Below, one piece after another: positions 7,727 to 52,382 of a stretch of 55,310 nt of DNA. This DNA is from a virus. Lineage: Duplodnaviria > Caudoviricetes. Position numbers and translations under genes: made by a program. The stretch's first letter is position 1. The number at the start of each line of letters is the position of its first letter. Below the pieces are notes generated by a model, which worked only from the letters and a program-made list of their open reading frames with translations, was not told the origin of the DNA and ran no database searches. The stretch spans positions 1 to 55,310 of IMG/VR virus record IMGVR_UViG_3300023097_000001; one strand, written 5' to 3'.

Positions 7727-7799
7727 GTCACCATAGCTCAAAGGGACAGAGCAACCGCCTCCTAAGCGGAAGATCCGAGTTCGAGTCTCGGTGGTGACA
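7727..7799 (+). tRNA. tRNA-Arg(CCU)
   Basis: Full cloverleaf: GTCACCA acceptor, anticodon loop CTCCTAA, T-loop TTCGAGT; no encoded CCA. Confidence 0.92.
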
Positions 7800-14639: not shown

Positions 14640-15746
14640 ATGAGGGTCGATGATGTTTTCGACCCGGCATTGTATGTCGAGATGGAAGGGGCGGGGATGA
14701 TTCGCACTCAGATTCACCCCTCCCTTCCCTTGGCTATCGCCACCTACACCAAGGACTGTGTTGTTGCACGGTGCTGGAATGAGGTGACGTTGCAGTGCCG
14801 TGGTTTGATTTACAACTACGAGACGCAAGAACTTTTGGCTCGTCCCTTTCCGAAGTTCTTCAACCTGGGTGAACCACTTGCCCGTGAGGACTACGAGGCT
14901 GATGTAGAAGTCAGTGACAAACTGGATGGCTCGTTGGGCATCGGTTACGTCTGGGAAGGAAAGCTCTACATTGCCACCAAGGGCAGCTTTGCCAGTGAAC
15001 AAGCTGTCGAAGCCAACAAGATCCTCCAGGAGACCCACCCCAACTGGCTTCCGCCTGAAGGTCTAACCCCGTTGTTCGAGATCATTTACCCCGAGAACCG
15101 TATCGTGCTGGACTATGGTCAATCACGAGAGCTTCGGTTTCTTGAGGCTATTGACATAGAAACGGGAAAGACTTTCGACTGGGGTTCAGACGATAAGGGT
15201 CGTGATAGTGTATGGATTTCGTGGCCCGGACGAACCGTCGGGTTCACGGGGTACCAAACCCTACGACAAGCCGTATCTGCTCTCCCTCGGGAGAACGCAG
15301 AGGGTTTCGTGGTGCGGTACTTGGACACGGATGAGAGAATCAAGATCAAGCAGCAAGACTATCTGGACAAGCACAAGATGGTGTTCTTGCTGTCTCAGAA
15401 GACCATCTGGGAATCACTGAAGAACGGTAGGTTCCACGAGTACAAGTCGGGGATGCCCGATGAGTTCCATGATTGGATGGATTCCGAGGCTTCAAAATTT
15501 ACTGCAAAATTTGAAGACCACCTTTCGATTATCGATGATTGCGTAAATTCCCCTGACCTGAGCTATCTCATTGAGTGTGCCCAGAACGGTGAGCGAGAAG
15601 CACGTCTGATGATCGAAGAACTCATCAGTGACCTGCCTAGGTGGGTGTGGGGTGCCATCTGGTGTGTGGTGGATGGCTACGACTACACCAAGATTATCTA
15701 CAAGCAGTTCGAACCCAAGGGACAAACAAAGGTGGCCAAGCCATGA
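14640..15746 (+). CDS. RNA ligase, T4 Rnl1 family
   Basis: CRGLI, RPFPKFFN, motif I KLDGS, FEII-x-PENRIV and EGFVV. Confidence 0.92.
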   Translation: MRVDDVFDPALYVEMEGAGMIRTQIHPSLPLAIATYTKDCVVARCWNEVTLQCRGLIYNYETQELLARPFPKFFNLGEPLAREDYEADVEVSDKLDGSLGIGYVWEGKLYIATKGSFASEQAVEANKILQETHPNWLPPEGLTPLFEIIYPENRIVLDYGQSRELRFLEAIDIETGKTFDWGSDDKGRDSVWISWPGRTVGFTGYQTLRQAVSALPRENAEGFVVRYLDTDERIKIKQQDYLDKHKMVFLLSQKTIWESLKNGRFHEYKSGMPDEFHDWMDSEASKFTAKFEDHLSIIDDCVNSPDLSYLIECAQNGEREARLMIEELISDLPRWVWGAIWCVVDGYDYTKIIYKQFEPKGQTKVAKP

Positions 15747-16559: not shown

Positions 16560-17489
16560 GTGAGTGCACCAGTGCTGTACTTCACGGTCGGCCTGCCGGG
16601 GTCAGGGAAGACCCACTACGCCAAGTGGTTGCGGACTCTTCACTCCCCCGGAAAGGTGATGACCATTTCCCGTGATGGTCTGCGGGATGAGTACTTCGGT
16701 ACTCGTGATGGATTGATCGGTGACCAGGAGGTGATGATCACTTCTCTCCAACACGCACAGATCCGCAGGGCACTGGAGCGTGGCATTACCGTGATCGTGC
16801 ACGACTGCAATCTTCGGATGCAATACCGCAAGCAGCTTGCACAGATCGCGGAAGACATGGGATTCAAGTGGGTTCAGGTAGACCTGACTCACATCTCTCT
16901 GGAGACGTGCCTCGAAAGGAATGCCAAGCGGGGAAACCCTGTTCCCGAAGAGGTCATCCGGAACATGTTCGATCGTTACATCAAGGCGAACAAGGGTGAG
17001 GCGATGGCACTGCCTCAGCCCAAGGCGAAGGCGGCTCTTCCGAAGCGTGAGATGTACGTTCCGGACACGTCCAAGCCCAAGGCTGTCATCGTGGACATCG
17101 ATGGGACTGTGGCTCTCCACGAGGGTGTGAGGGGTGTCTACGACACGTCCAAGTACCACCTGGACAAGCCCAACCTTCCCATCATCGACATGGTGAGGCA
17201 CGAGGCCTACGACTTGGGGAACAAGATCTTGTTCACCTCGGGTCGTCACGTGAACTTCTTTGGTGTGACCGAAGATTGGTTGTACCAGGAAGTGAAGGTC
17301 CCCATCGAGGGGCAGTTCATGCGTGAGAACCACGGTGTCAGTGACGACATCGAGAAGTTGGATCTCTTCGACAAGTACATCAGGCACAACTACAATGTGG
17401 TTCGTGCATACGACGACCGAAACCGAGTGGTCAAGGCCTGGCGTTCAATCGGCCTGACTTGCTTGCAGGTAGCCGAAGGCGACTTCTGA
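16560..17489 (+). CDS. pnk: polynucleotide 5'-kinase / 3'-phosphatase (T4 PseT-like)
   Basis: P-loop GLPGSGKT, RD-x-LR, HAD motif DIDGT, TSGR and DDR-x2-VV. Confidence 0.93.
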   Translation: MSAPVLYFTVGLPGSGKTHYAKWLRTLHSPGKVMTISRDGLRDEYFGTRDGLIGDQEVMITSLQHAQIRRALERGITVIVHDCNLRMQYRKQLAQIAEDMGFKWVQVDLTHISLETCLERNAKRGNPVPEEVIRNMFDRYIKANKGEAMALPQPKAKAALPKREMYVPDTSKPKAVIVDIDGTVALHEGVRGVYDTSKYHLDKPNLPIIDMVRHEAYDLGNKILFTSGRHVNFFGVTEDWLYQEVKVPIEGQFMRENHGVSDDIEKLDLFDKYIRHNYNVVRAYDDRNRVVKAWRSIGLTCLQVAEGDF

Positions 17490-18891: not shown

Positions 18892-19054
18892 GAAGGAGAA
18901 AAGATGTTCAAGCTCACCACTGCTCGTACGATCCTCGCGTGGATCGGCTTCGTTACTGTCGTGATCGTGTTCGGTGCTGCGGTTACCCAGGGTTGGGGTT
19001 TCGTGGCTCAGTACCTTCGTGAGATGGGTCTGGCCATCTAAGAAAGGAAGCACC

Positions 19055-19933
19055 ATCTATTCCCTCACTCAAAGCAAGAGGGCAAGAGGTGCGGGCGGGG
19101 AACCAATCCCCACTGGGTGGAAGAGTTTGGACAACGCGGGTATCGTGTTCCGCCGTGGTCAGCTAGTTCTGATCGCGGCGGGACCCGGTACCGCCAAGTC
19201 GGCTCTCACCTTGGCGTTGACTATCCAATCTGGGGTTCCCAGTATGATCTTCAGTGCTGACTCCGATGCCTTCACGCAGATGACACGTTCGATCTCCATG
19301 CTTACCGACATTCCTTTGACCAAGTCGACAGAGATGGTCCTAGAAGACAAAATCCCTGACGACGTAGCAGAGAACATGTCCGGGGTTCCGCTTCGTATTG
19401 ACTACGAGTCTTCTCCTAGTCCAGAAGACATTGAAGAGATCCTTGAAGCTTACTGGGAACTCTTCGGCGAATACCCCACGCTTATTGTCATCGACAACAT
19501 CACCAACGTCTCAGGCGTTGGCAACGTGGATGATGATTTCTCCGCAGGCCTCGAAGGCCTGATGGATTACCTACACTCAATGGCTCGTGAAACAGCAGCC
19601 TGTGTTATCGGACTGCACCACGTGAACGGGCCTTACAACGATGGCGACAAGCCAATCCCCTTGAGTGGGATCAAGGGTCAGATCGGACGAGTACCCGAGA
19701 TGATCCTGACCCTGCACAAGAGGAAGTTCGACGATGAGACCATGATCCTGTGTGTCTCCAAGGTCAAGGTGCGTGGGGGTCAACCAGACCCCTCGGGTAA
19801 CACCTGGGCTGAGTTGGAGTTCAAGGGATTCAAGATGTCCTTCCGAGATCCGGAACTCCAGGATATTCCTGCTCCGGAAATGGAGTGGGAAGACACCCAA
19901 CGCAGGCAGGAGGAAGAACTACAATGGGGCTGA
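19055..19933 (+). CDS. DnaB/RecA-like helicase, probable ATC start
   Basis: Walker A AGPGTAKS, FSADSD, Walker B IVIDN and LHHV; AGAAAGGAAG RBS precedes an in-frame ATC. Confidence 0.88.
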   Translation: MYSLTQSKRARGAGGEPIPTGWKSLDNAGIVFRRGQLVLIAAGPGTAKSALTLALTIQSGVPSMIFSADSDAFTQMTRSISMLTDIPLTKSTEMVLEDKIPDDVAENMSGVPLRIDYESSPSPEDIEEILEAYWELFGEYPTLIVIDNITNVSGVGNVDDDFSAGLEGLMDYLHSMARETAACVIGLHHVNGPYNDGDKPIPLSGIKGQIGRVPEMILTLHKRKFDDETMILCVSKVKVRGGQPDPSGNTWAELEFKGFKMSFRDPELQDIPAPEMEWEDTQRRQEEELQWG

Positions 19934-20467
19934 GGAAGGTCTCTGGGTATCTCCTCCTGTCTGCTGTGTTCGGTGGCTTCTTTGGTGCCATGTCTTACAA
20001 CATCGGGCTTGGTCCTGCGGTTGTGATCATAGGTACCGCAGCAGCGGCACTAGGGATAATGGAACTGGCTATCTACTTGATCTGGGAGGGTGACAATGGC
20101 TCAACCAAGCCTAAGGCTGAATGATCCCATCCTTATCTTGGGCACTGTCCACGGGTACTTTGACAGGTACATGGATGACCGTGACCACTTCGGTAGGATC
20201 ATGGTAGGAGTACCCAGCCTACGGGGTGGTGTTCCTGCGATCATCCCACGAGAGTGGGCGACCCCGAGAGAGGAGAAGGACGATGGTTAGGCGTGAGTAT
20301 GTGGACGTCTGCCCCGCTTGCCACACCGTGTACCGAGGGTACAAGGAGGCAACAGTGCAAAACCAAGCAGAGAACTGCGCCACGCGTTGTTCTCCCAAGG
20401 ATGAGTCCAACGAACCCTCTTTGGATGATGCCTTGAAGAAGGCACGAGAGGAACTAGGTGACTGGTA

Positions 20468-20989
20468 GTGGGCCGTGCAAGAAGGGCACGGAGCCCTGCG
20501 ACGAAGAAACCCTCTGCGAAGACGCAGAACGACTCCTCAACTACGACTGGTCCATCGAGTTCTTCTACCAAGCCATGCAAAGGGTGTGGCTCTACGACCA
20601 GGAAGCTCACGGCACCGGGGCCACGATGCGCGACATGCCACAGAGACCGCCGTACTACCGTCCAGTTAGCCCGCAGGCTGGCGTACGTGTCTAAGCAGTA
20701 TGGTTTGACCCCTGAGCAGTATCAGAAGCTTGTAGACGCTTGTAGGAAGAACTCCAAGGGTCAGCCAATCTGCTACATCTGTGATCGAAACCGGGGCAAC
20801 TGTGTGGATCACGACCATGCGTGTTGCCCCGGCAAGATCTCCTGCGGCAAGTGTGTCCGAGGACTGATCTGCAATCCCTGTAACAAGGGAGTGCTTGGTC
20901 ATTTCAGAGACGATGTCAAGTGTTTGATCCGTGCTATCACGTACATCAAATTTCCACCAGCCCAAATGCTCTTGAAGGAGGAAGCATGA
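20468..20989 (+). CDS. recombination endonuclease VII
   Basis: YGLT-x2-QY, CYIC, VDHDH and VRGLIC-x2-CN. Confidence 0.9.
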   Translation: MGRARRARSPATKKPSAKTQNDSSTTTGPSSSSTKPCKGCGSTTRKLTAPGPRCATCHRDRRTTVQLARRLAYVSKQYGLTPEQYQKLVDACRKNSKGQPICYICDRNRGNCVDHDHACCPGKISCGKCVRGLICNPCNKGVLGHFRDDVKCLIRAITYIKFPPAQMLLKEEA

Positions 20990-21480
20990 CCGGATACAAG
21001 CCCACTCAGTTGGTTCTGGACTGGGAGAAGGCATTGAGGAACCCGGAGTTGGAACAGACCACGGGTGCTTTGTGCAAGGTTGCAGATGGGCAGCGTTCCT
21101 ACTGCTGCCTGGGTGTGCTCCAGGAGGTGGCGGGTAACGTTGCCAGGCCGGACCCCATGGGCAACACCAACAACTGGAAGTACTACGGTGAAACCGCGTG
21201 GGGTGAGAGCGGACTGCCTGCTCTTGCGTTGACCCGACGCGTGACGGGTGAAGAAGGAGATCCCGACGAAGATATGTTCGAAGGGAACGTGCTGCTGGGT
21301 GTGGACTCCTACGGCATCCCCATGGAAGCAGCCGAACTCAACGATGATTACTACTGGACGTTCGAGATGATCGCGGACCAGGTTCGTAAGATCTACATCG
21401 AGGGCACCGGAAACCACAGGGACTACACCATCACGTCGGACGAGCTGTACTACCTGGAAGACGAAGACGATTGCGAGTGA
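20986..21480 (+). CDS. hypothetical protein (paralog of 4902-5441)
   Basis: ALR, GAL, YCCLGV and TFEMIAD. Confidence 0.75.
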   Translation: MTGYKPTQLVLDWEKALRNPELEQTTGALCKVADGQRSYCCLGVLQEVAGNVARPDPMGNTNNWKYYGETAWGESGLPALALTRRVTGEEGDPDEDMFEGNVLLGVDSYGIPMEAAELNDDYYWTFEMIADQVRKIYIEGTGNHRDYTITSDELYYLEDEDDCE

Positions 21481-21587
21481 CGTAGGGGGGGGGTGAGTGA
21501 ATGCCTAGGCAGTGTATCTTCGGTGGTGAGTGTATCGACGGGTGCGAGGTTGGCACCGAGGTAGACGAAGACACCGAAGAGTAAGCA

Positions 21588-21639
21588 GGGCGAAACGCCG
21601 GGAGGCGTCCACGGGTTGGTCCCGTGCCGATGAGCCCAA
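21588..21639 (+). ncRNA. type II hammerhead-ribozyme-like element (U4C core variant)
   Basis: GGGC-GAAA-CGCC[GGGA]GGCG-TC-CACGGG[TTGGT]CCCGTG-CCGATGA-GCCC: three stems and all core residues except U4. Confidence 0.75.
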
Positions 21640-21852
21640 GGAGGCAGCATGTTCGTCTTCATTTGTGCAGGGTGTCCACACGTTGACGACTGTGTCAACG
21701 GCAAGGAAGCTTGTATCAACCCTGATCCGGAGAAGAAGGAGGAAGAGTGAACTGCCCCAAGGGCGGTGAATGTCCTGATCCCGAAGCGTGCCAGCAAGGC
21801 GCACCATGTGAAGTAGTTGTCTACTGGACCGAAGTAATGAAGGAGCGACAGA

Positions 21853-22065
21853 ATGACGATCGATGATGGTAACGAGGCTCTGTCTGTCTTCTCTTCGTGG
21901 TTCGAAGAGGATCACCCTGCGGGATACCTCACTCGTGGTGAGGGGTACAACCACTCCTGGCAGTTCACCGTAGCCAGGGGTGTGGGAATACTGCGTGTGG
22001 TGATGGAAGATGTCAACACGCTGGACACTGCGGAGTTCGAATGGGAACTGATCCCCCGATCATAG
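21853..22065 (+). CDS. hypothetical protein
   Basis: GAAGGAG RBS. Confidence 0.6.
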   Translation: MTIDDGNEALSVFSSWFEEDHPAGYLTRGEGYNHSWQFTVARGVGILRVVMEDVNTLDTAEFEWELIPRS

Positions 22066-22415
22066 TCTTGCTGCGGAAGTGGTTCCCGGACTGGGAACCA
22101 CCCCGTGGTAATCGCGAATGGCTACCCTGTCTGTGCCCGTTTCATGCTGAGACACGGGCATCGGCTTCTGTATCCTTCACCAACAACGCATTCACCTGTC
22201 ATGGGTGTGCGATGAAGGGTGGAATTGTCAACCTGATCATGAGGAAGGAGGGATTGTCGTTTGCGGAAGCCCAGCGCTACGCAACTGAATTTCTTGATGG
22301 AAGCTACGTCCCGATACCACAAAAGCCTACCCGGAAGCCCAGCCGAAGAGTATTTGGAAAGGCGGGGGCTCAAGGGGGAAGAGCTAAAAAAGTACCGGCT
22401 TGGCGTGGTAAGTGA
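22041..22415 (+). CDS. DNA primase, CHC2 zinc-binding half
   Basis: CPFH-x5-S and F-x-CHGC-x3-GG; overlaps the TOPRIM half as in cluster A phages. Confidence 0.85.
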   Translation: MGTDPPIIVLLRKWFPDWEPPRGNREWLPCLCPFHAETRASASVSFTNNAFTCHGCAMKGGIVNLIMRKEGLSFAEAQRYATEFLDGSYVPIPQKPTRKPSRRVFGKAGAQGGRAKKVPAWRGK

Positions 22416-22920
22416 CCCACTGCCTGGTCATGACATGTACCGGGGATGGCTTGCCATTCCTTACTTGAGGTACAGTCCTGGTCAGGGTTGGTGTGTCATC
22501 ACCATGAGGTTCAGGTGCATCGAGAACCACGACCATGGTAAGCATGGAAAGTACATGGCTCACCCTGGGTCCGAGGTTCATGCTTTCAATACCATGTCGA
22601 TCCTGAAGACCGACGATGAGATCTGTATCTGTGAGGGCGAACTGGATGCTATTGCAGCCGAGTTGATCGGACTGCACGCTGTAGGTATTCCAGGTCGGGA
22701 GAACTGGAAGTCACACTTCCACCGGATGTTCCTCGGGTATGAGAAGGTATTCATCTTGGCCGATGGTGATCAGGCTGGTAAGGATTTCGCGTTTGATGTG
22801 ATGAAGACGCTGCCCCGTGGTCGCATCATCAACATGCCTGAGGGCAAAGACGTGAACTCCACCATCACTACCTTTGGTGCCGAAGCAGTACTGTCGAGAA
22901 TGGGGAAGAAGAATGCCTGA
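22261..22920 (+). CDS. DNA primase, TOPRIM half
   Basis: YL-x2-RG, IPY, ICEGELDA, DGDQAG and KDVN. Confidence 0.88.
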   Translation: MRKPSATQLNFLMEATSRYHKSLPGSPAEEYLERRGLKGEELKKYRLGVVSDPLPGHDMYRGWLAIPYLRYSPGQGWCVITMRFRCIENHDHGKHGKYMAHPGSEVHAFNTMSILKTDDEICICEGELDAIAAELIGLHAVGIPGRENWKSHFHRMFLGYEKVFILADGDQAGKDFAFDVMKTLPRGRIINMPEGKDVNSTITTFGAEAVLSRMGKKNA

Positions 22921-23161
22921 AGCAGTAATGGAAGCTCGTATCTCCATCACGTTCGACTGGGGTAATGTCTTCCTCACCGTGGCGGAAGCACGGGAGCTTC
23001 GTGACCAGTTGGACGACGCATTGCCACTCGAAGACGACGTGGTGTACAACAAGGGTGGGTCATTCGGGTTCGCCCCGGCCACCCAGAACGAAGAGGAGAA
23101 TGACTGTGAGTGAATACGGATTCGAAGCTACCAAGGCTGTTGGTAAGACCGTTGGTGATAA

Positions 23162-23902
23162 GTGAAGATCCTGACGCTGGATATCGAGACGGCCCCCAAC
23201 GGGGGCTGGGTCTTTGACCTCTGGAACCAGAACATCTCACTAGCACAGCTTCGAGAGAATGTGCGGGTCCTGTGTTTCGCTGCCAAGTGGTACGACGAAG
23301 ACAAGATTGTGTTCTTCTCCGAGTTCCATGATGGTGCTGATGTGATGATCCAGAACGCTTGGGATCTTCTGAACGAGGCGGACGCTGTTGTCACCTACAA
23401 CGGTGATGCGTTCGACCTCAAGCATTTCAACCGTGAGTTCTTCCTTCGGGAGATGGCTCCTCCGGCTCCTTACGAGAAGATCGATCTCTACAAGGCGGTC
23501 AAGTCACAGTTCAAGTTCGCCTCCAACAAGCTGGACCACGTCTCCGACCAGATCCAGATCGGTAAGAAGGTCAAGCACGCAGGGTTCGGATTGTGGATTC
23601 GTTGCATGAACAACGAAGCTTCTGCGTGGGAGGAGATGAAGACCTATAACATAGGGGATGTGGACCTAACGGAGAAGCTGTACAAGCGGCTTATCCCTTG
23701 GATCTCCAAGCACCCCAACATGGGTCTGTACGAGGAAGACACCGATGAGGACGTGTGCCCCAACTGCTCTAGTGTCAACCTTCAGCGTCGCGGATTCCGG
23801 CGGGTGGGGCTCTCTGAGTTCCAGCAATACCAGTGCCAAGACTGCTCGGCCTGGTCGCGGAGTGGCAAGGCCACGAACCGTGTCGACATCCGTCCCGCAT
23901 AG
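23162..23902 (+). CDS. DnaQ/RNase H-like 3'-5' exonuclease with C-terminal Zn ribbon
   Basis: DIET, YNG-x2-FD, YN-x2-DV, CPNC and CQDC. Confidence 0.85.
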   Translation: MKILTLDIETAPNGGWVFDLWNQNISLAQLRENVRVLCFAAKWYDEDKIVFFSEFHDGADVMIQNAWDLLNEADAVVTYNGDAFDLKHFNREFFLREMAPPAPYEKIDLYKAVKSQFKFASNKLDHVSDQIQIGKKVKHAGFGLWIRCMNNEASAWEEMKTYNIGDVDLTEKLYKRLIPWISKHPNMGLYEEDTDEDVCPNCSSVNLQRRGFRRVGLSEFQQYQCQDCSAWSRSGKATNRVDIRPA

Positions 23903-25855: not shown

Positions 25856-27664
25856 ATGCAAACATGGACACTTCATGTCAGGGGTGATCCGGTCAAGATT
25901 CACCGTGTCGAATCTCCGGAAGACCTGGAACTGTTTAAGGAATTTGTTCGGAAGAACATCAAGGTCTTGGCGTTTGACACGGAGACCACAGGGCTCGATA
26001 TTTACTCCAGATCGTATCGGCTACGCCTAGTCCAGTTCGGTAACCAGCACGAAGCGTGGGTTATCCCGGTTGAACTAGGTGATCCGTACCTGACCGTGGT
26101 TGCTCAAACACTGATAGCAGTGGAGAAGATCGTCGGCAAGAACTTGTCGTTCGACTTCAAGGTTATCAACCGGTGTATGGGTATTCCCATGGAGAAGTTG
26201 TGGCCCAAGGCCATCGACACAGAAATTCAGGCCAAGCTCATCGATCCCCGTGCCCCTGAGAAGGGCGGGATTGGTGTCTCCCTGGAAGATCTGGTTCGAC
26301 AGTACTTGGACCCAGACTTGGCAGACAATGTCAAGGGTCTGATGAGTAAGTTGGCCAAGGAACACAAGACCACCAAGGCAAAAATCTTCGAGAAGATCAG
26401 CCTGGACCACCCGGAATACAACATCTATGCGGGGATGGACACCATCTTCCCGGCTCGGATTGTTGGTATTCAGGCCAAGTTGATTCCTGTGTCGTCGGCA
26501 CAACTCCTGGGCTTCGAACACGAGATCGCAGAGGTCTGCTCGTACATGGATCGTGGGGGCTTCCTCCTTGATCTGGAGTACACGCAGAAACTCTCGATGG
26601 AACTGCACGAGGAAGAGGAGAAGTACACGGAGATCGCACGTGGCTTCGGCTGCGAGAATGTGAACTCCACGGCTCAGGTTGCTGAGGTGCTGTTGCATCG
26701 TGGTGTCAAGCTAAAGGATCGAACTCCAACCGGCAAGCTCCAGGTGTCCAAGACGATCCTGGATAAGCTCGTCAAGGAGAACGACCCGTTTGCCATCGCG
26801 GTACAGCGCGCCAAGAAGGCGCTCAAGTGGCGAACCACATGGGTGGATGGGTTCCTGAACAACATGGACGACGAAGGTAGGTGCCACGCATCTATCAACA
26901 CGCTCCAGGCTCGAACTGGGCGTATGTCCATCACGGGAATCCCGGCTCAGACGCTCCCTGCGTCTGACTTCACCATCCGGAAGTGCTTCGTAGCCGAAGA
27001 GGGTCATTCGCTCGTCAGCGTGGACTACAAGGGGCAGGAACTACGTGTCCTGGCAGCCCTGAGTGGTGACGAGACGATGATTCAGGCCTTTGCCAACGAC
27101 TGGAACCTTCACCTCATGACCGCCAAGGCTGCTTTTGGTGATCACGTGGAGAAGGACACCAAGGAGTACAAGGCAGGAAAGATCACCAACTTCGCACGTG
27201 TGTTTGGTGGTGGTGCCAGGGTTGTTGCGGAACAAACTGGCCTCTCATTCGTACAAGCGAAGAAGGTTGTCGAGGCATTCGACAAGCGGTATCCCGGTGT
27301 AACCCGATACGCGGATAAGCTAGCCAAGATTGCTGAACGCGATGGGTTTATCGTAACCCACTTTGGTCGACACCTCCCGGTCGATCCCGACCGTGCCTAT
27401 TCCGCCTTGAACTACATGGTCCAGTCCAGCTCCAGGGACATCACGTGTCGGGGAATCCTGAGGGCATACCGTGCGGGCTTCGGTCCCTACATGCGCCTTC
27501 CGATTCACGATGAACTTCTGTTGTCCATGCCCACTAATCGAGCGCAGTGGGGTGCCAACGAAGTTGCACGACACATGTCAGAAAAGCTAGGGGTTGTCTT
27601 CATTGATACCGACGCTGAGGTTGGGCGTAGGTCTTGGGGCAGCTTGTACGGAGACGTCGATTAG
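25856..27664 (+). CDS. polA: DNA polymerase family A (3'-5' exonuclease plus polymerase)
   Basis: DTETTG, RTGRMS, DYKGQELR, motif B K-x2-NF-x3-FG, NY-x-VQ and IHDE. Confidence 0.96.
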   Translation: MQTWTLHVRGDPVKIHRVESPEDLELFKEFVRKNIKVLAFDTETTGLDIYSRSYRLRLVQFGNQHEAWVIPVELGDPYLTVVAQTLIAVEKIVGKNLSFDFKVINRCMGIPMEKLWPKAIDTEIQAKLIDPRAPEKGGIGVSLEDLVRQYLDPDLADNVKGLMSKLAKEHKTTKAKIFEKISLDHPEYNIYAGMDTIFPARIVGIQAKLIPVSSAQLLGFEHEIAEVCSYMDRGGFLLDLEYTQKLSMELHEEEEKYTEIARGFGCENVNSTAQVAEVLLHRGVKLKDRTPTGKLQVSKTILDKLVKENDPFAIAVQRAKKALKWRTTWVDGFLNNMDDEGRCHASINTLQARTGRMSITGIPAQTLPASDFTIRKCFVAEEGHSLVSVDYKGQELRVLAALSGDETMIQAFANDWNLHLMTAKAAFGDHVEKDTKEYKAGKITNFARVFGGGARVVAEQTGLSFVQAKKVVEAFDKRYPGVTRYADKLAKIAERDGFIVTHFGRHLPVDPDRAYSALNYMVQSSSRDITCRGILRAYRAGFGPYMRLPIHDELLLSMPTNRAQWGANEVARHMSEKLGVVFIDTDAEVGRRSWGSLYGDVD

Positions 27665-28538: not shown

Positions 28539-29279
28539 ATGACGAACGCAGTGCATGAGGCTTGGGAACTCCTTTCCAATGTCTCGGATGGTGTCTGGGA
28601 GACCCAGTCTCCGCAGTGGCAGGTCGACACCGAAGCGTGGCGGGACCGCTACATGGGTAAGTCGAAGCACATGGGTGAGGTCGGGTTCATCAAGTGGCCG
28701 TCGACTCCGCGCTTCCACAAGTACCTGACCATTGCCGAGAAGATCAATGGCACGAACGCGGCCATTCGTATCCTGGACGGTAAGGTCACGACCCAGTCCC
28801 GCAAGCGGATCATCACGCCTGACGATGACAACTTCGGCTTCGCCAGGTGGGCGTACGACAACGCTGGTGCTCTTACGGATGTTCTGGGCTACGGTGTCCA
28901 CTTCGGTGAGTGGTTCGGTGAGGGCATCCAGAAGAACCCTCTGGGTATCGAGGGCAAGCGCTTCGCGCACTTCTCCCCGTGGAAGTTCAACGACGCAGAG
29001 AAGGAGCGAATCGAGAACTCTGGTCTTGTGGAGTTCGTTCCGATCCTCTTCGAGGGTCAGGCTGACTTCATGACGATTCCCACTGTGCTCACGAACCTGA
29101 GCCAGTTTGGTAGTCAGGTTTCTGGAGCAGCACGGTATGTCCCCGAATCTTTTGATGGTCCGGCGGGCGACTTCACTGTCGCCAACAAGGCTGAGGGCAT
29201 CATCGTGTGGCAGAAGGAGACTCAGCAGAAGTACAAGATCCTGCTGGAGAACGACTCCATCCACAAGGGGCAGCTGTGA
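28539..29279 (+). CDS. RNA ligase, Rnl2-like nucleotidyltransferase domain
   Basis: EKINGTN, QSR-x-R, DNFGFA-x-W, FGEWFG-x-GIQ, VP-x-L and EGIIV. Confidence 0.85.
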   Translation: MTNAVHEAWELLSNVSDGVWETQSPQWQVDTEAWRDRYMGKSKHMGEVGFIKWPSTPRFHKYLTIAEKINGTNAAIRILDGKVTTQSRKRIITPDDDNFGFARWAYDNAGALTDVLGYGVHFGEWFGEGIQKNPLGIEGKRFAHFSPWKFNDAEKERIENSGLVEFVPILFEGQADFMTIPTVLTNLSQFGSQVSGAARYVPESFDGPAGDFTVANKAEGIIVWQKETQQKYKILLENDSIHKGQL

Positions 29280-50959: not shown

Positions 50960-51031
50960 TCAGGATGGGTGGGATCGAACCACCGGCCCCGCGCTTCCAA
51001 AGCGCTCACTCTACCTCTGAGCTACACCCTG
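50960..51031 (-). tRNA. tRNA-Pro(UGG)
   Basis: Cloverleaf; anticodon loop TTTGGAA. Confidence 0.88.
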
Positions 51032-51045
51032 ATTGTCTAACAAAG

Positions 51046-51117
51046 AGCCGCTACTAGGACTTGAACCCAGAACCACCCGCTTACGAGGCGGGTGCTCTTC
51101 CATTGAGCTACAACGGC
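51046..51117 (-). tRNA. tRNA-Thr(CGU)
   Basis: Cloverleaf; loop CTCGTAA. Confidence 0.9.
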
Positions 51118-51121
51118 ATTG

Positions 51122-51193
51122 CGGGGCCACGAGGTCTCGAACCTCGGACAGCTCTTTTGGAGAGAGCCGTTTTGCCTACTAAACTATGTCCCC
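51122..51193 (-). tRNA. tRNA-Trp(CCA)
   Basis: Cloverleaf; loop CTCCAAA. Confidence 0.88.
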
Positions 51194-51246
51194 TTGACTA
51201 GCAGGCGCAGAAGAAGCGCCCACAGTCCTTACACAAAAACACCATG

Positions 51247-51317
51247 CTGCCTGCCCTGGATTCGAACCAAGAACAGATGGTTCAGAGCCACCCGTGTTGC
51301 CGTTACACCAACAGGCA
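51247..51317 (-). tRNA. tRNA-Gln(CUG)
   Basis: U1-A72, loop CTCTGAA, G73. Confidence 0.9.
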
Positions 51318-51369
51318 TTGTCCGTGCACCCTCTTACGCAGGCGTCCCCACTCGCGAATACACGGATTG

Positions 51370-51441
51370 TCATCCATCCAGGATTTGAACCTGGAACCTA
51401 GAGCTTAAGAGGCCCTTGCTCTACCCTTGAGCTAATGGACG
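51370..51441 (-). tRNA. tRNA-Lys(CUU)
   Basis: Cloverleaf; loop CTCTTAA. Confidence 0.9.
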
Positions 51442-51442
51442 G

Positions 51443-51515
51443 TCGCTCGTCCTGGAATCGAACCAGGGACCTTCTACTCATCAGGTAGACGCTCTTACCA
51501 CTGAGTTAACGAGCT
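51443..51515 (-). tRNA. tRNA-Ile(GAU), atypical G37
   Basis: Cloverleaf; loop CTGATGA; 1:72 mismatch. Confidence 0.82.
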
Positions 51516-51521
51516 ATACTT

Positions 51522-51608
51522 CTACACGCAGTGACAGTTCGTCAAAGAGTCACCCGTGTTCATCTTGCCCGTACCATGACAGTCCGGGCAGTTGTACTTT
51601 GGTTTCAT
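51522..51608 (-). CDS. DnaJ-type Zn-finger microprotein (28 aa)
   Basis: MKPKYNCPDCHGTGKMNTGDSLTNCHCV; AGGAG RBS. Confidence 0.65.
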   Translation of the reverse strand: MKPKYNCPDCHGTGKMNTGDSLTNCHCV

Positions 51609-51616
51609 CGGAACTC

Positions 51617-51739
51617 CTACTCAGTGACGGTTCCGCTCCCGTGACAGGTGGGACAGACGATCTCGGTCTGACTTCCATCTGGATTACGCTGGTAAACCGT
51701 CTTTTCACCCTTGCAGGTGTAGCACTCTACTGTTGCCAT
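51617..51739 (-). CDS. DnaJ-type Zn-finger microprotein (40 aa)
   Basis: MATVECYTCKGEK...VCPTCHGSGTVTE; GAGAGG RBS. Confidence 0.7.
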   Translation of the reverse strand: MATVECYTCKGEKTVYQRNPDGSQTEIVCPTCHGSGTVTE

Positions 51740-51760
51740 TCCAACCTCTCGTACGTGGTC

Positions 51761-51832
51761 GGTAAGGACGGGACTCGAACCCGCTAAAACCGGTTTCACA
51801 AACCGGTGCCTCGGCCACTTCGGCATCCTTCC
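51761..51832 (-). tRNA. tRNA-His(GUG)
   Basis: Loop TTGTGAA, C73; the encoded -1 base is A rather than G. Confidence 0.85.
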
Positions 51833-51834
51833 TG

Positions 51835-51906
51835 CTCCCACAACTGGATTCGAACCAGTAACCCGCGCCTTAACAGGGCGCTGCTCTGCCGTTGAGCTAT
51901 ACGGGA
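51835..51906 (-). tRNA. tRNA-Asn(GUU)
   Basis: Cloverleaf; loop CTGTTAA, G73. Confidence 0.92.
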
Positions 51907-51998
51907 ATAACGTGGCCACTCGATACACTCCATAGACCGGAGCATCGCTGGACCAACGGACAGTTCCTACATGCGTGAGTGTACTGTCAACTAAACTG

Positions 51999-52074
51999 TC
52001 GCTCCTGAGGGATTCGAACCCCCGCAAACCCAGGTTCGTAGCCTGGTGCTCTGTCCGGACTGAGCTAAGAAGCG
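51999..52074 (-). tRNA. tRNA-Arg(ACG)
   Basis: Cloverleaf; loop CTACGAA. Confidence 0.9.
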
Positions 52075-52077
52075 ATA

Positions 52078-52148
52078 TTACCCGCCAGGGAATCGAACCC
52101 TGATCTCCTGGGTGTAGGCCAGGAACTCTTCCTTTGAGCTAGCAGGCA
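52078..52148 (-). tRNA. tRNA-Val(UAC), atypical C33
   Basis: Stem CCTGG/CCAGG; loop CCTACAC. Confidence 0.82.
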
Positions 52149-52151
52149 AAG

Positions 52152-52225
52152 CCGAAACGCTTGGATTTGAACCAAGAACCCGTGGCTTTTCACGCCACTG
52201 CTCTTCCAAGTTGAGCTACGTCCCG
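52152..52225 (-). tRNA. tRNA-Phe(GAA), atypical G32
   Basis: Stem GTGGC/GCCAC; loop GTGAAAA. Confidence 0.85.
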
Positions 52226-52229
52226 TTGA

Positions 52230-52303
52230 TCCCAGTTCAAGGACTCGAACCTCGAACTCCCGAGTTACAGTCAGGCCGGTTGCCAATTACCATACAAACT
52301 GGG
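52230..52303 (-). tRNA. tRNA-Tyr(GUA), no long variable arm
   Basis: Loop CTGTAAC; C1-G72, A73; 4-nt variable loop. Confidence 0.78.
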
Positions 52304-52307
52304 ATAG

Positions 52308-52382
52308 TACCCCTCCCCAGATTCGAACTGGGAACCTTCCGGGTCTGAGCCGGACGCCTCTGCCAGGTTGGGCTAGAAGGGC
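52308..52382 (-). tRNA. tRNA-Leu(CAG), no long variable arm
   Basis: Loop CTCAGAC; A73; 5-nt variable loop. Confidence 0.82.

Follow-up and report, generated by a model that had tools for sequence, protein, structure and literature searches.

Phage type II hammerheads are described as abundant and of undefined biological role, roles in product stability having been proposed but not established (review PMC6765202). Variant cores are on record among them. For example, the hammerhead of phage Bcep176 carries an A6C substitution and is active, though slow (k_obs below 0.1 per min; PMC3088659; Naghdi et al. 2020, PMC7151607), with a preference for Mn2+ reported for A6C. The hammerhead of haloviruses HF1/HF2 (HHphage), whose variant core has a 2-nt insertion near C3 that is linked to high salt, lies 13 nt upstream of the start codon of the helicase gene, and mapping placed a transcript 5' end no more than 3 nt from its cleavage site (PMC3088659). 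Position 4 belongs to the CUGA U-turn, whose single and double mutants showed low activity in pairwise mutagenesis (PMC9901934). Substitution of U4 by C 'considerably decreases activity in vitro' but sustains the infectivity of a viroid (Perreault 2011, PMC3088659), and the viroid hammerhead with a natural U4C (Ambros and Flores 1998, as cited in PMC3088659) is described there as having enough activity in vivo. The same paper speculates that slower phage variants might gain activity under appropriate conditions. A literature search returned no description of U4C in phage hammerheads and none of hammerheads in actinophages; supplementary figures S6 and S7 of PMC3088659, which compile core variants assayed as active or inactive, may include cases of the former, and the supplementary figures of that paper may also bear on the latter.

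The DNA analysed here, termed the window, is the whole 55,310-nt stretch of IMG/VR record IMGVR_UViG_3300023097_000001, a complete virus genome of 55,310 bp with direct terminal repeats. It contains one intergenic element of the type II hammerhead kind with a U4C core. The viroid hammerhead has this same single core substitution but is a replication ribozyme, not an mRNA element of a DNA phage. The Bcep176 hammerhead shares with the element its phage intergenic setting and a natural single core substitution, which affects A6 and not U4; HHphage differs by its insertion, where the window has U4C in an actinophage-like genome. The phage of the window is an uncultured soil phage. Its genome is, to judge from its replication proteins, that of an uncultured actinophage-like virus, since its DNA polymerase I reaches at best 57.6% identity with the Mycobacterium phage counterparts and its primase resembles those of Mycobacterium and Gordonia phages only distantly. 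This primase similarity (64-70%) was the sole distant blastn match of region 20900-22500, for which megablast against phages gave zero matches.

An earlier note on this DNA had described the hammerhead fold in the 64-nt gap, which lies between the TAA stop of a 27-aa ORF and the ATG of a 33-aa ORF, and all the features that it listed (gap, stems, core, C17 and ribosome-binding site, RBS) were found again base for base (Table 1). The element (21588-21637, + strand, 50 nt) begins 3 nt past the stop codon and ends 11 nt ahead of the ATG, abutting the RBS of the next ORF as the note had said. Its topology is that of type II, in which loops close stems I and III and stem II is left open. Stems I, III and II measure 6, 5 and 4 bp and stand at the expected places, all 15 model pairs being formed in the alignment to the covariance model R1 described below. 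The core agrees with the consensus at 11 of 12 positions: C3, G5, A6, G8, A9, G12, A13, A14, the A15.1-U16.1 pair and H17 are all present, and the exception is position 4, which is C (21628) where the consensus has U. The cleavage triplet at the predicted site is GUC. As for the pseudoknot between loop I and the tail that the note had proposed, UUGG and CCAA are indeed complementary, but the support is sequence complementarity only, and the CC of the CCAA tail is shared with the outer two of the four stem II pairs. The two pairings compete, so the pseudoknot and a full stem II cannot both form completely. In the alignment to the Rfam model RF02276 (Hammerhead_II), UGG of loop I and CCA of the 3' tail fall on the loop and tail positions of the model's pseudoknot. 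Of two near-twins with a canonical core, L048 carries the full ACCAA, displaced 8 nt downstream, and L043 only CCA.

Table 1. Coordinates of the element and of the surrounding features in the window.
Feature	Position	Strand	Remark
Rnl1-like RNA ligase (PF09511)	14640-15746		
Pnkp, polynucleotide kinase-phosphatase (PF25109 + kinase domain)	16560-17489		
DnaB-like helicase	18974-19933	+	Upstream of the element
Endonuclease VII	20468-20989	+	Upstream of the element
27-aa Cys-rich ORF (MPRQCIFGGECIDGC...)	21501-21584	+	Upstream; TAA stop 21582-21584, 3 nt before the predicted ribozyme
Stem II, 5' strand GGGC	21588-21591	+	C11.1 = 21591
Core G12 A13 A14	21592-21594	+	Invariant in 133/133 distinct rows (best 150 of 236 R1 matches)
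Stem III hairpin ACGCC[GGGA]GGCGU	21595-21608	+	A15.1 = 21595, U16.1 = 21608
Predicted scissile bond C17/C1.1	21609/21610	+	From homology with the hammerhead consensus
Stem I hairpin CACGGG[UUGGU]CCCGUG	21610-21626	+	
Core C3-C4-G5-A6-U7-G8-A9 (CCGAUGA)	21627-21633	+	
Stem II, 3' strand GCCC	21634-21637	+	G10.1 = 21634, pairs with C21591
CCAA, complementary to loop I UUGG (21616-21619)	21636-21639	+	Possible pseudoknot, sequence complementarity only
RBS AAGGAGG of the next ORF	21638-21644	+	GGGAGG at the same place in L001
33-aa Cys-rich ORF	21649-21750	+	Downstream; ATG at 21649
39-aa ORF	21747-21866	+	Follows the 33-aa ORF
Primase zinc-ribbon ORF	22041-22415	+	Downstream of the element
Primase Toprim ORF	22261-22920	+	Downstream of the element
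RNase H-like exonuclease		+	Downstream of the element
Pol I	25856-27664	+	Downstream of the element
Second RNA ligase-family protein (PF09414)	28539-29279		

The gap belongs to a + strand replication operon and the element lies on the same strand as the surrounding genes, which confirms the placement given in the earlier note: helicase and endonuclease VII lie upstream, primase and Pol I downstream. A 164-aa protein is encoded just upstream as well. The note had also put the element upstream of the primase genes; the primase is indeed downstream, but not directly, as three small ORFs of 33, 39 and 70 aa come first. A promoter and terminator scan of 19500-23500 found no promoter-like site and two terminator-like sites, neither of them at the element.

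Some features of this neighborhood are recorded for themselves. The 27-, 33- and 39-aa ORFs are consecutive, and all three are rich in Cys and have an acidic tail (CxxGxxCxDxC-like). A related lineage (L001) conserves the 27-aa and 39-aa ORFs, and the 33-aa ORF is an insertion specific to the lineage of the window: it is missing in the related loci L001, L130 and L131, where the homolog of the 39-aa ORF comes straight after the predicted ribozyme, and contigs of run X3 skip 21641-21756. The primase is split, its zinc-ribbon and Toprim ORFs overlapping by about 150 nt in different frames. Cluster A-like Mycobacterium phages have similar paired annotations ('DNA primase | DNA primase'), and the split could represent either two genes or a programmed frameshift.

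The type II descriptor used for the searches requires at least 4 bp in stem III, at least 4 bp in stem I, at least 2 bp in stem II and at most one mismatch over 12 core positions. On both strands of the window it found exactly one site, this element. Among 300 dinucleotide-preserving shuffles of the window, eight contained a match to this loose descriptor (0.03 per window) and none had stems as long as those observed. RF02276 aligns to 21588-21641 across all of its 66 model positions, at 28.1 bits and an E-value of 6.8e-4 for the 281 nt searched. The Rfam comparison that the earlier note had proposed as a check hence gave two answers, a full-length alignment in 281 nt, but a score under the gathering cut-off of 37 bits. 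Over the whole window, Rfam at its gathering threshold returned 13 matches, all of them tRNA and none a ribozyme, and 23 matches at E<=5, without a hammerhead or any other ribozyme class; an RF02276 profile search of the element's own record gave no match from 16 scored candidates. Both canonical CUGAUGA twins also score under the cut-off, with 32.4 bits (L132/L133, equivalent to L048) and 29.6 bits (L043), so the shortfall stems mostly from the compact architecture and not from C4, whose cost in the RF02276 score is about 4 bits. At L132, a second hammerhead candidate (572-640; RF02276, 26.5 bits) lies about 450 nt downstream of the canonical twin, and the two flank a single 140-aa ORF.

A covariance model suited to the compact form, R1, was built from eight canonical-core 50-nt compact hammerheads of other viral contigs, the window lineage being left out. 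With filters off, R1 gave the element 68.8 bits (E 2.4e-19). The next match in the window scored just 12.8 bits and lies in a tRNA array, which indicates that the window has exactly one hammerhead. When the window was searched together with 99 of the 133 collected loci (952 kb), R1 returned 236 matches at E<=1e-4, among which the element ranks 8th. The family alignment was made of the best 150 of these 236 matches, which gave 133 distinct rows. Paired cells amount to 98.5% in this alignment, against 69.1% after shuffling and 31-48% when the partner is slid, and double-sided changes number 510 against 151 in the shuffled control. All six pairs of helix 3 (stem I) have double-sided changes, and helix 2 (stem III) covaries too. 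The G10.1-C11.1 pair is a C-G pair in 133 of the 133 rows, the other conserved core columns being invariant or nearly so. Stem I of the near-twins differs from that of the window by compensatory changes (CGCGGG/CCCGCG in L043, CACCGG/CCGGUG in L048), and both have the canonical CUGAUGA core.

Hammerhead homology of the element is, on these comparisons, close to certain, and the full-length RF02276 alignment, the twins and the R1 score uphold the earlier identification of the element as homologous to type II hammerheads, with C in place of U4 in its core. The element resembles RF02276 by 11 of 12 core positions, the G10.1-C11.1 pair, the GUC triplet and its intergenic placement in a phage operon. 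It differs by C4, by its compact 50 nt with a 6-bp stem I and a 5-nt loop, and by a 4-bp stem II without a linker before CCAA. It is filed as a core variant because position 4 is not U and the score lies below the Rfam cut-off; as classified from sequence, it is a core variant and a homolog of the type II family, descended from the RF02276 hammerheads, and not a consensus member.

That the motif arose by chance, or reflects coding sequence, is very improbable. ORFs of 79 aa (+, 21530-21769), 115 aa (-) and 149 aa (-) do span the element. Long spurious ORFs are common in GC-rich DNA. A motif equal to the observed one occurred in no shuffle, and the R1 E-value argues equally against chance. The L001 sequence lacks 1 nt ahead of the element and has 2 extra nt behind it, which puts the spanning frame out of register with the flanks; the 79-aa ORF and the antisense ORFs were rejected as coding. 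The 27-aa ORF, which uses another frame, is also 27 aa long in its L001 homolog, and in the alignment its conserved core differs by synonymous changes only.

The hammerhead fold is the minimum free energy structure of 21588-21637 (-22.9 kcal/mol), and its helices have an ensemble probability of 0.73, a value that both canonical twins share. Inclusion of the RBS flank changes the minimum free energy structure to a different fold, at -24.9 kcal/mol for 21585-21648 (z-score -0.22) and -25.6 kcal/mol for 21588-21652. Single-sequence thermodynamics neither finds nor excludes the ribozyme, because the 64-nt gap alone takes a non-hammerhead fold with a z-score of only -0.22.

In the alternative fold predicted for 21588-21652, positions 21640-21644 pair with 21606-21610 (GGAGG of the RBS with the cleavage-site region GCGUCC), which raises the idea of a conditional ribozyme, or true switch. 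The C4 core would then be active only at high Mg2+, at a low pH protonating C4 or with a phage or host factor, and cleavage would control downstream translation. The speculation on condition-dependent slow phage variants in Perreault 2011 (PMC3088659) would fit such behavior. Nevertheless, the alternative fold is only about 2.7 kcal/mol better and has one mismatch, the order of transcription favors the hammerhead fold, already complete by the time the RBS is transcribed, and the 50-nt element has no ligand or aptamer-like extra domain. A conditional ribozyme is regarded as improbable, and the word 'switch' in the earlier note found no support.

Relatives of the locus are few. Searches through the upstream 164-aa protein found none, a two-sequence alignment retrieved the L001 contig only, a clade-pattern scan of genome contigs gave 0 matches, and a metagenome scan gave four loci, all of the L001 or L048 lineages. 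The sole related lineage in the collections searched comprises L001/L129, L130 and L131, and the evidence for conservation comes from only two lineages, that of the window and the L001/L130/L131 group, which have diverged from each other. Positions 21584-21641 match L130 and L131 perfectly over 58 nt, at an overall identity of 61% across the aligned 11-15 kb (gaps counted as mismatches). The protein encoded immediately upstream is 48% identical in these same relatives. Only two or three exact runs are longer, the 58-nt run being the third or fourth longest there, and the longer ones lie in the endonuclease VII gene. In contigs of runs X3 and X5, seven substitutions and one 1-nt deletion fall in 21539-21583 and none in 21584-21641. 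The seven sequencing runs listed included no RNA run, and contigs of four DNA runs had no piling up of starts or ends, a signal that contigs are in any case unable to carry. C4 is not an assembly error, since the identical element is kept in relatives and in run contigs with diverged flanks. It is kept together with what appears to be an otherwise intact ribozyme sequence.

A 195-nt block in the endonuclease VII gene (20473-20667) is nearly identical to the relatives as well, with exact runs of 80, 63 and 50 nt, far above the overall 61%, which could reflect strong constraint or recent exchange. The identity of the element across lineages would look the same if it came from a recently exchanged block, and such an exchange is a possible source of it because this coding block is conserved equally.

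The frequency of U4C was counted in several ways. A first scan of IMG/VR allowing a pyrimidine (Y) at position 4 gave 70 matches at 55 loci, 65 with T and five with C. Two of these five (L018 and L050) were judged regex artefacts, with a canonical CTGACGA just upstream. The second scan, which left positions 4 and 7 free and asked for a 4-bp stem II, gave 89 matches at 78 loci (T 84, C 3, G 1, A 1); the 70 well-formed ones divide into 68 T and 2 C. The least biased count allowed at most one mismatch at any of the 12 core positions and covered all 133 loci (1.19 Mb of phage DNA). It comprises 202 distinct type II elements, 196 canonical and six with one mismatch, and the mismatch is U4C in six of six. 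The same holds for the 98 elements outside the selection by scan pattern, with 95 canonical cores and three variants, all three U4C. One U4C element (L008-type) is identical in four related loci, and three further related loci have U there. Random decay would not repeat one position and one substitution, so U4C looks tolerated or selected. Two orthologs of the L008 C4 element, L023 and L039, have U4 but read CUGACGAAGCC, with an extra A, or an A at 10.1, beside the core; they represent an apparent natural core-adjacent variant.

This census bears on whether the element is a catalytically dead or nearly dead relic, in which U4C inactivated the ribozyme and the hairpins were kept for RBS context, cistron spacing or protection from nucleases. 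Position 4 is U in 131 of the 133 distinct rows (best 150 of 236 R1 matches), and such near invariance speaks for a relic, as does the low activity of U-turn mutants reported in PMC3088659 and PMC9901934. Decay would be expected elsewhere too, yet the 11 other core positions and the 15 pairs are intact and identical despite diverged flanks. Random inactivation would also not yield a pattern in which all six core variants among 202 elements are U4C, and the viroid U4C variant works in vivo, as PMC3088659 reports. A relic is thus considered unlikely, though worth keeping in mind.

Besides the core, the tail downstream of it varies between lineages. In 12 of 169 distinct type II hammerheads, the tail after the 3' strand of stem II complements core positions 3-7 (CUGAUGAGCCCAUCAG or CUGACGAGCCCGUCAG). 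Elements with such a tail lie at L043:1512-1575, L048:12342-12405 and about ten other loci (e.g., L005, L087, L088, L098). Covariation links the tail base to the free core position N7: C7 occurs with G in 7/7 cases, and U7 with A in four and G in one. At L113, a C4 core is matched by an AUCGG tail. These complementarities suggest an alternative hairpin that would sequester the core. Both canonical twins carry the core-complementary tail, and the window lineage is without it. One could count this loss in favor of a relic, as regulation of an active core could be no longer needed. On the slow-allele proposal given below, the coincidence of U4C with tail loss in the window lineage would suggest two alternative ways of damping the same ribozyme.

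At a probability of about 0.6, the favored reading is that of a compact type II hammerhead in the + strand replication operon, self-cleaving, slowed by U4C and separating cistrons; in short, the element probably serves as a site of attenuated mRNA processing between cistrons. Stems III and I would form as hairpins during transcription, and the 4-bp stem II would close the three-way junction. The RNA would then cut itself between C21609 and C21610. The upstream product would carry the helicase, endonuclease VII, the 164-aa protein and the 27-aa ORF, and its 3' end would be the stem III hairpin, bearing a 2',3'-cyclic phosphate at 21609. The downstream product, which carries the small ORFs, the primase and the polymerase, would start with a 5'-OH at 21610 and the stem I hairpin, its RBS standing 28 nt from the new end. 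Processing may be slow, or may concern only a fraction of the transcripts, because U4C most likely lowers the cleavage rate; the 'possibly attenuated' of the earlier note agrees with what PMC3088659 says on U4C. We infer cleavage itself, its attenuation by U4C, and a purpose, which would be to uncouple the stability or the translation of neighboring cistrons.

A bolder proposal, which we put forward tentatively and at less than even odds, is that U4C is a selected 'slow allele' and not damage. U4C would be the only core substitution tolerated, would have arisen independently in at least six phage lineages, and would stay unchanged while flanks diverge. It would give partial or delayed cleavage at cistron boundaries, here at the entry to primase and polymerase, with full-length and processed mRNAs coexisting.

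The genome also encodes RNA repair enzymes, as the earlier note had stated: an Rnl1-like RNA ligase, Pnkp and a second RNA ligase. Together with the tRNA genes, these make up the classic tRNA-repair set, and the three enzymes form a T4-like RNA repair set in an actinophage-like genome. Rfam finds 14 tRNA genes in the genome, 13 of them tightly packed in an array at 50960-52382 (-) and one more at 7727-7799 (+). For the functional link that the note had drawn between ribozyme and repair enzymes, nothing was found beyond shared end chemistry.

Related elements occupy comparable places in other phages. In Streptomyces phage Paedore (L134, NC_054671.1, 45620-52743), R1 finds seven matches in 7.1 kb, each in an intergenic gap of its own, and all seven are on the gene strand and start 1-40 nt past a stop codon. 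The element of the window is likewise intergenic, on the gene strand and shortly after a stop. Several metagenomic relatives have an RBS directly 3' of the ribozyme, as in the window. Hammerhead-like elements were seen in the cultured Streptomyces phages Paedore, Loofah, R4, phiELB20, Yara, VieEnRose and Spernnie. Among the 11 Streptomyces phage records listed, no annotated feature lies under the match in four, and a protein-coding or ribosome-binding-site annotation does in seven. The metagenomic contigs L019, L053 and L055 have 8-10 hammerhead elements per locus.

Overall, the census of 202 distinct elements suggests a rule, namely that U4C is the only single core variant. This rule could help ribozyme annotation, because the Rfam cut-off misses the whole compact subfamily. 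A conserved natural core variant at a single cistron boundary of a replication operon is a clean test case for asking whether the cleavage rate is tuned by selection and how processing affects the neighboring genes, and cultured Streptomyces phages with many unannotated copies of related elements, such as Paedore and R4, provide a laboratory system for such tests.
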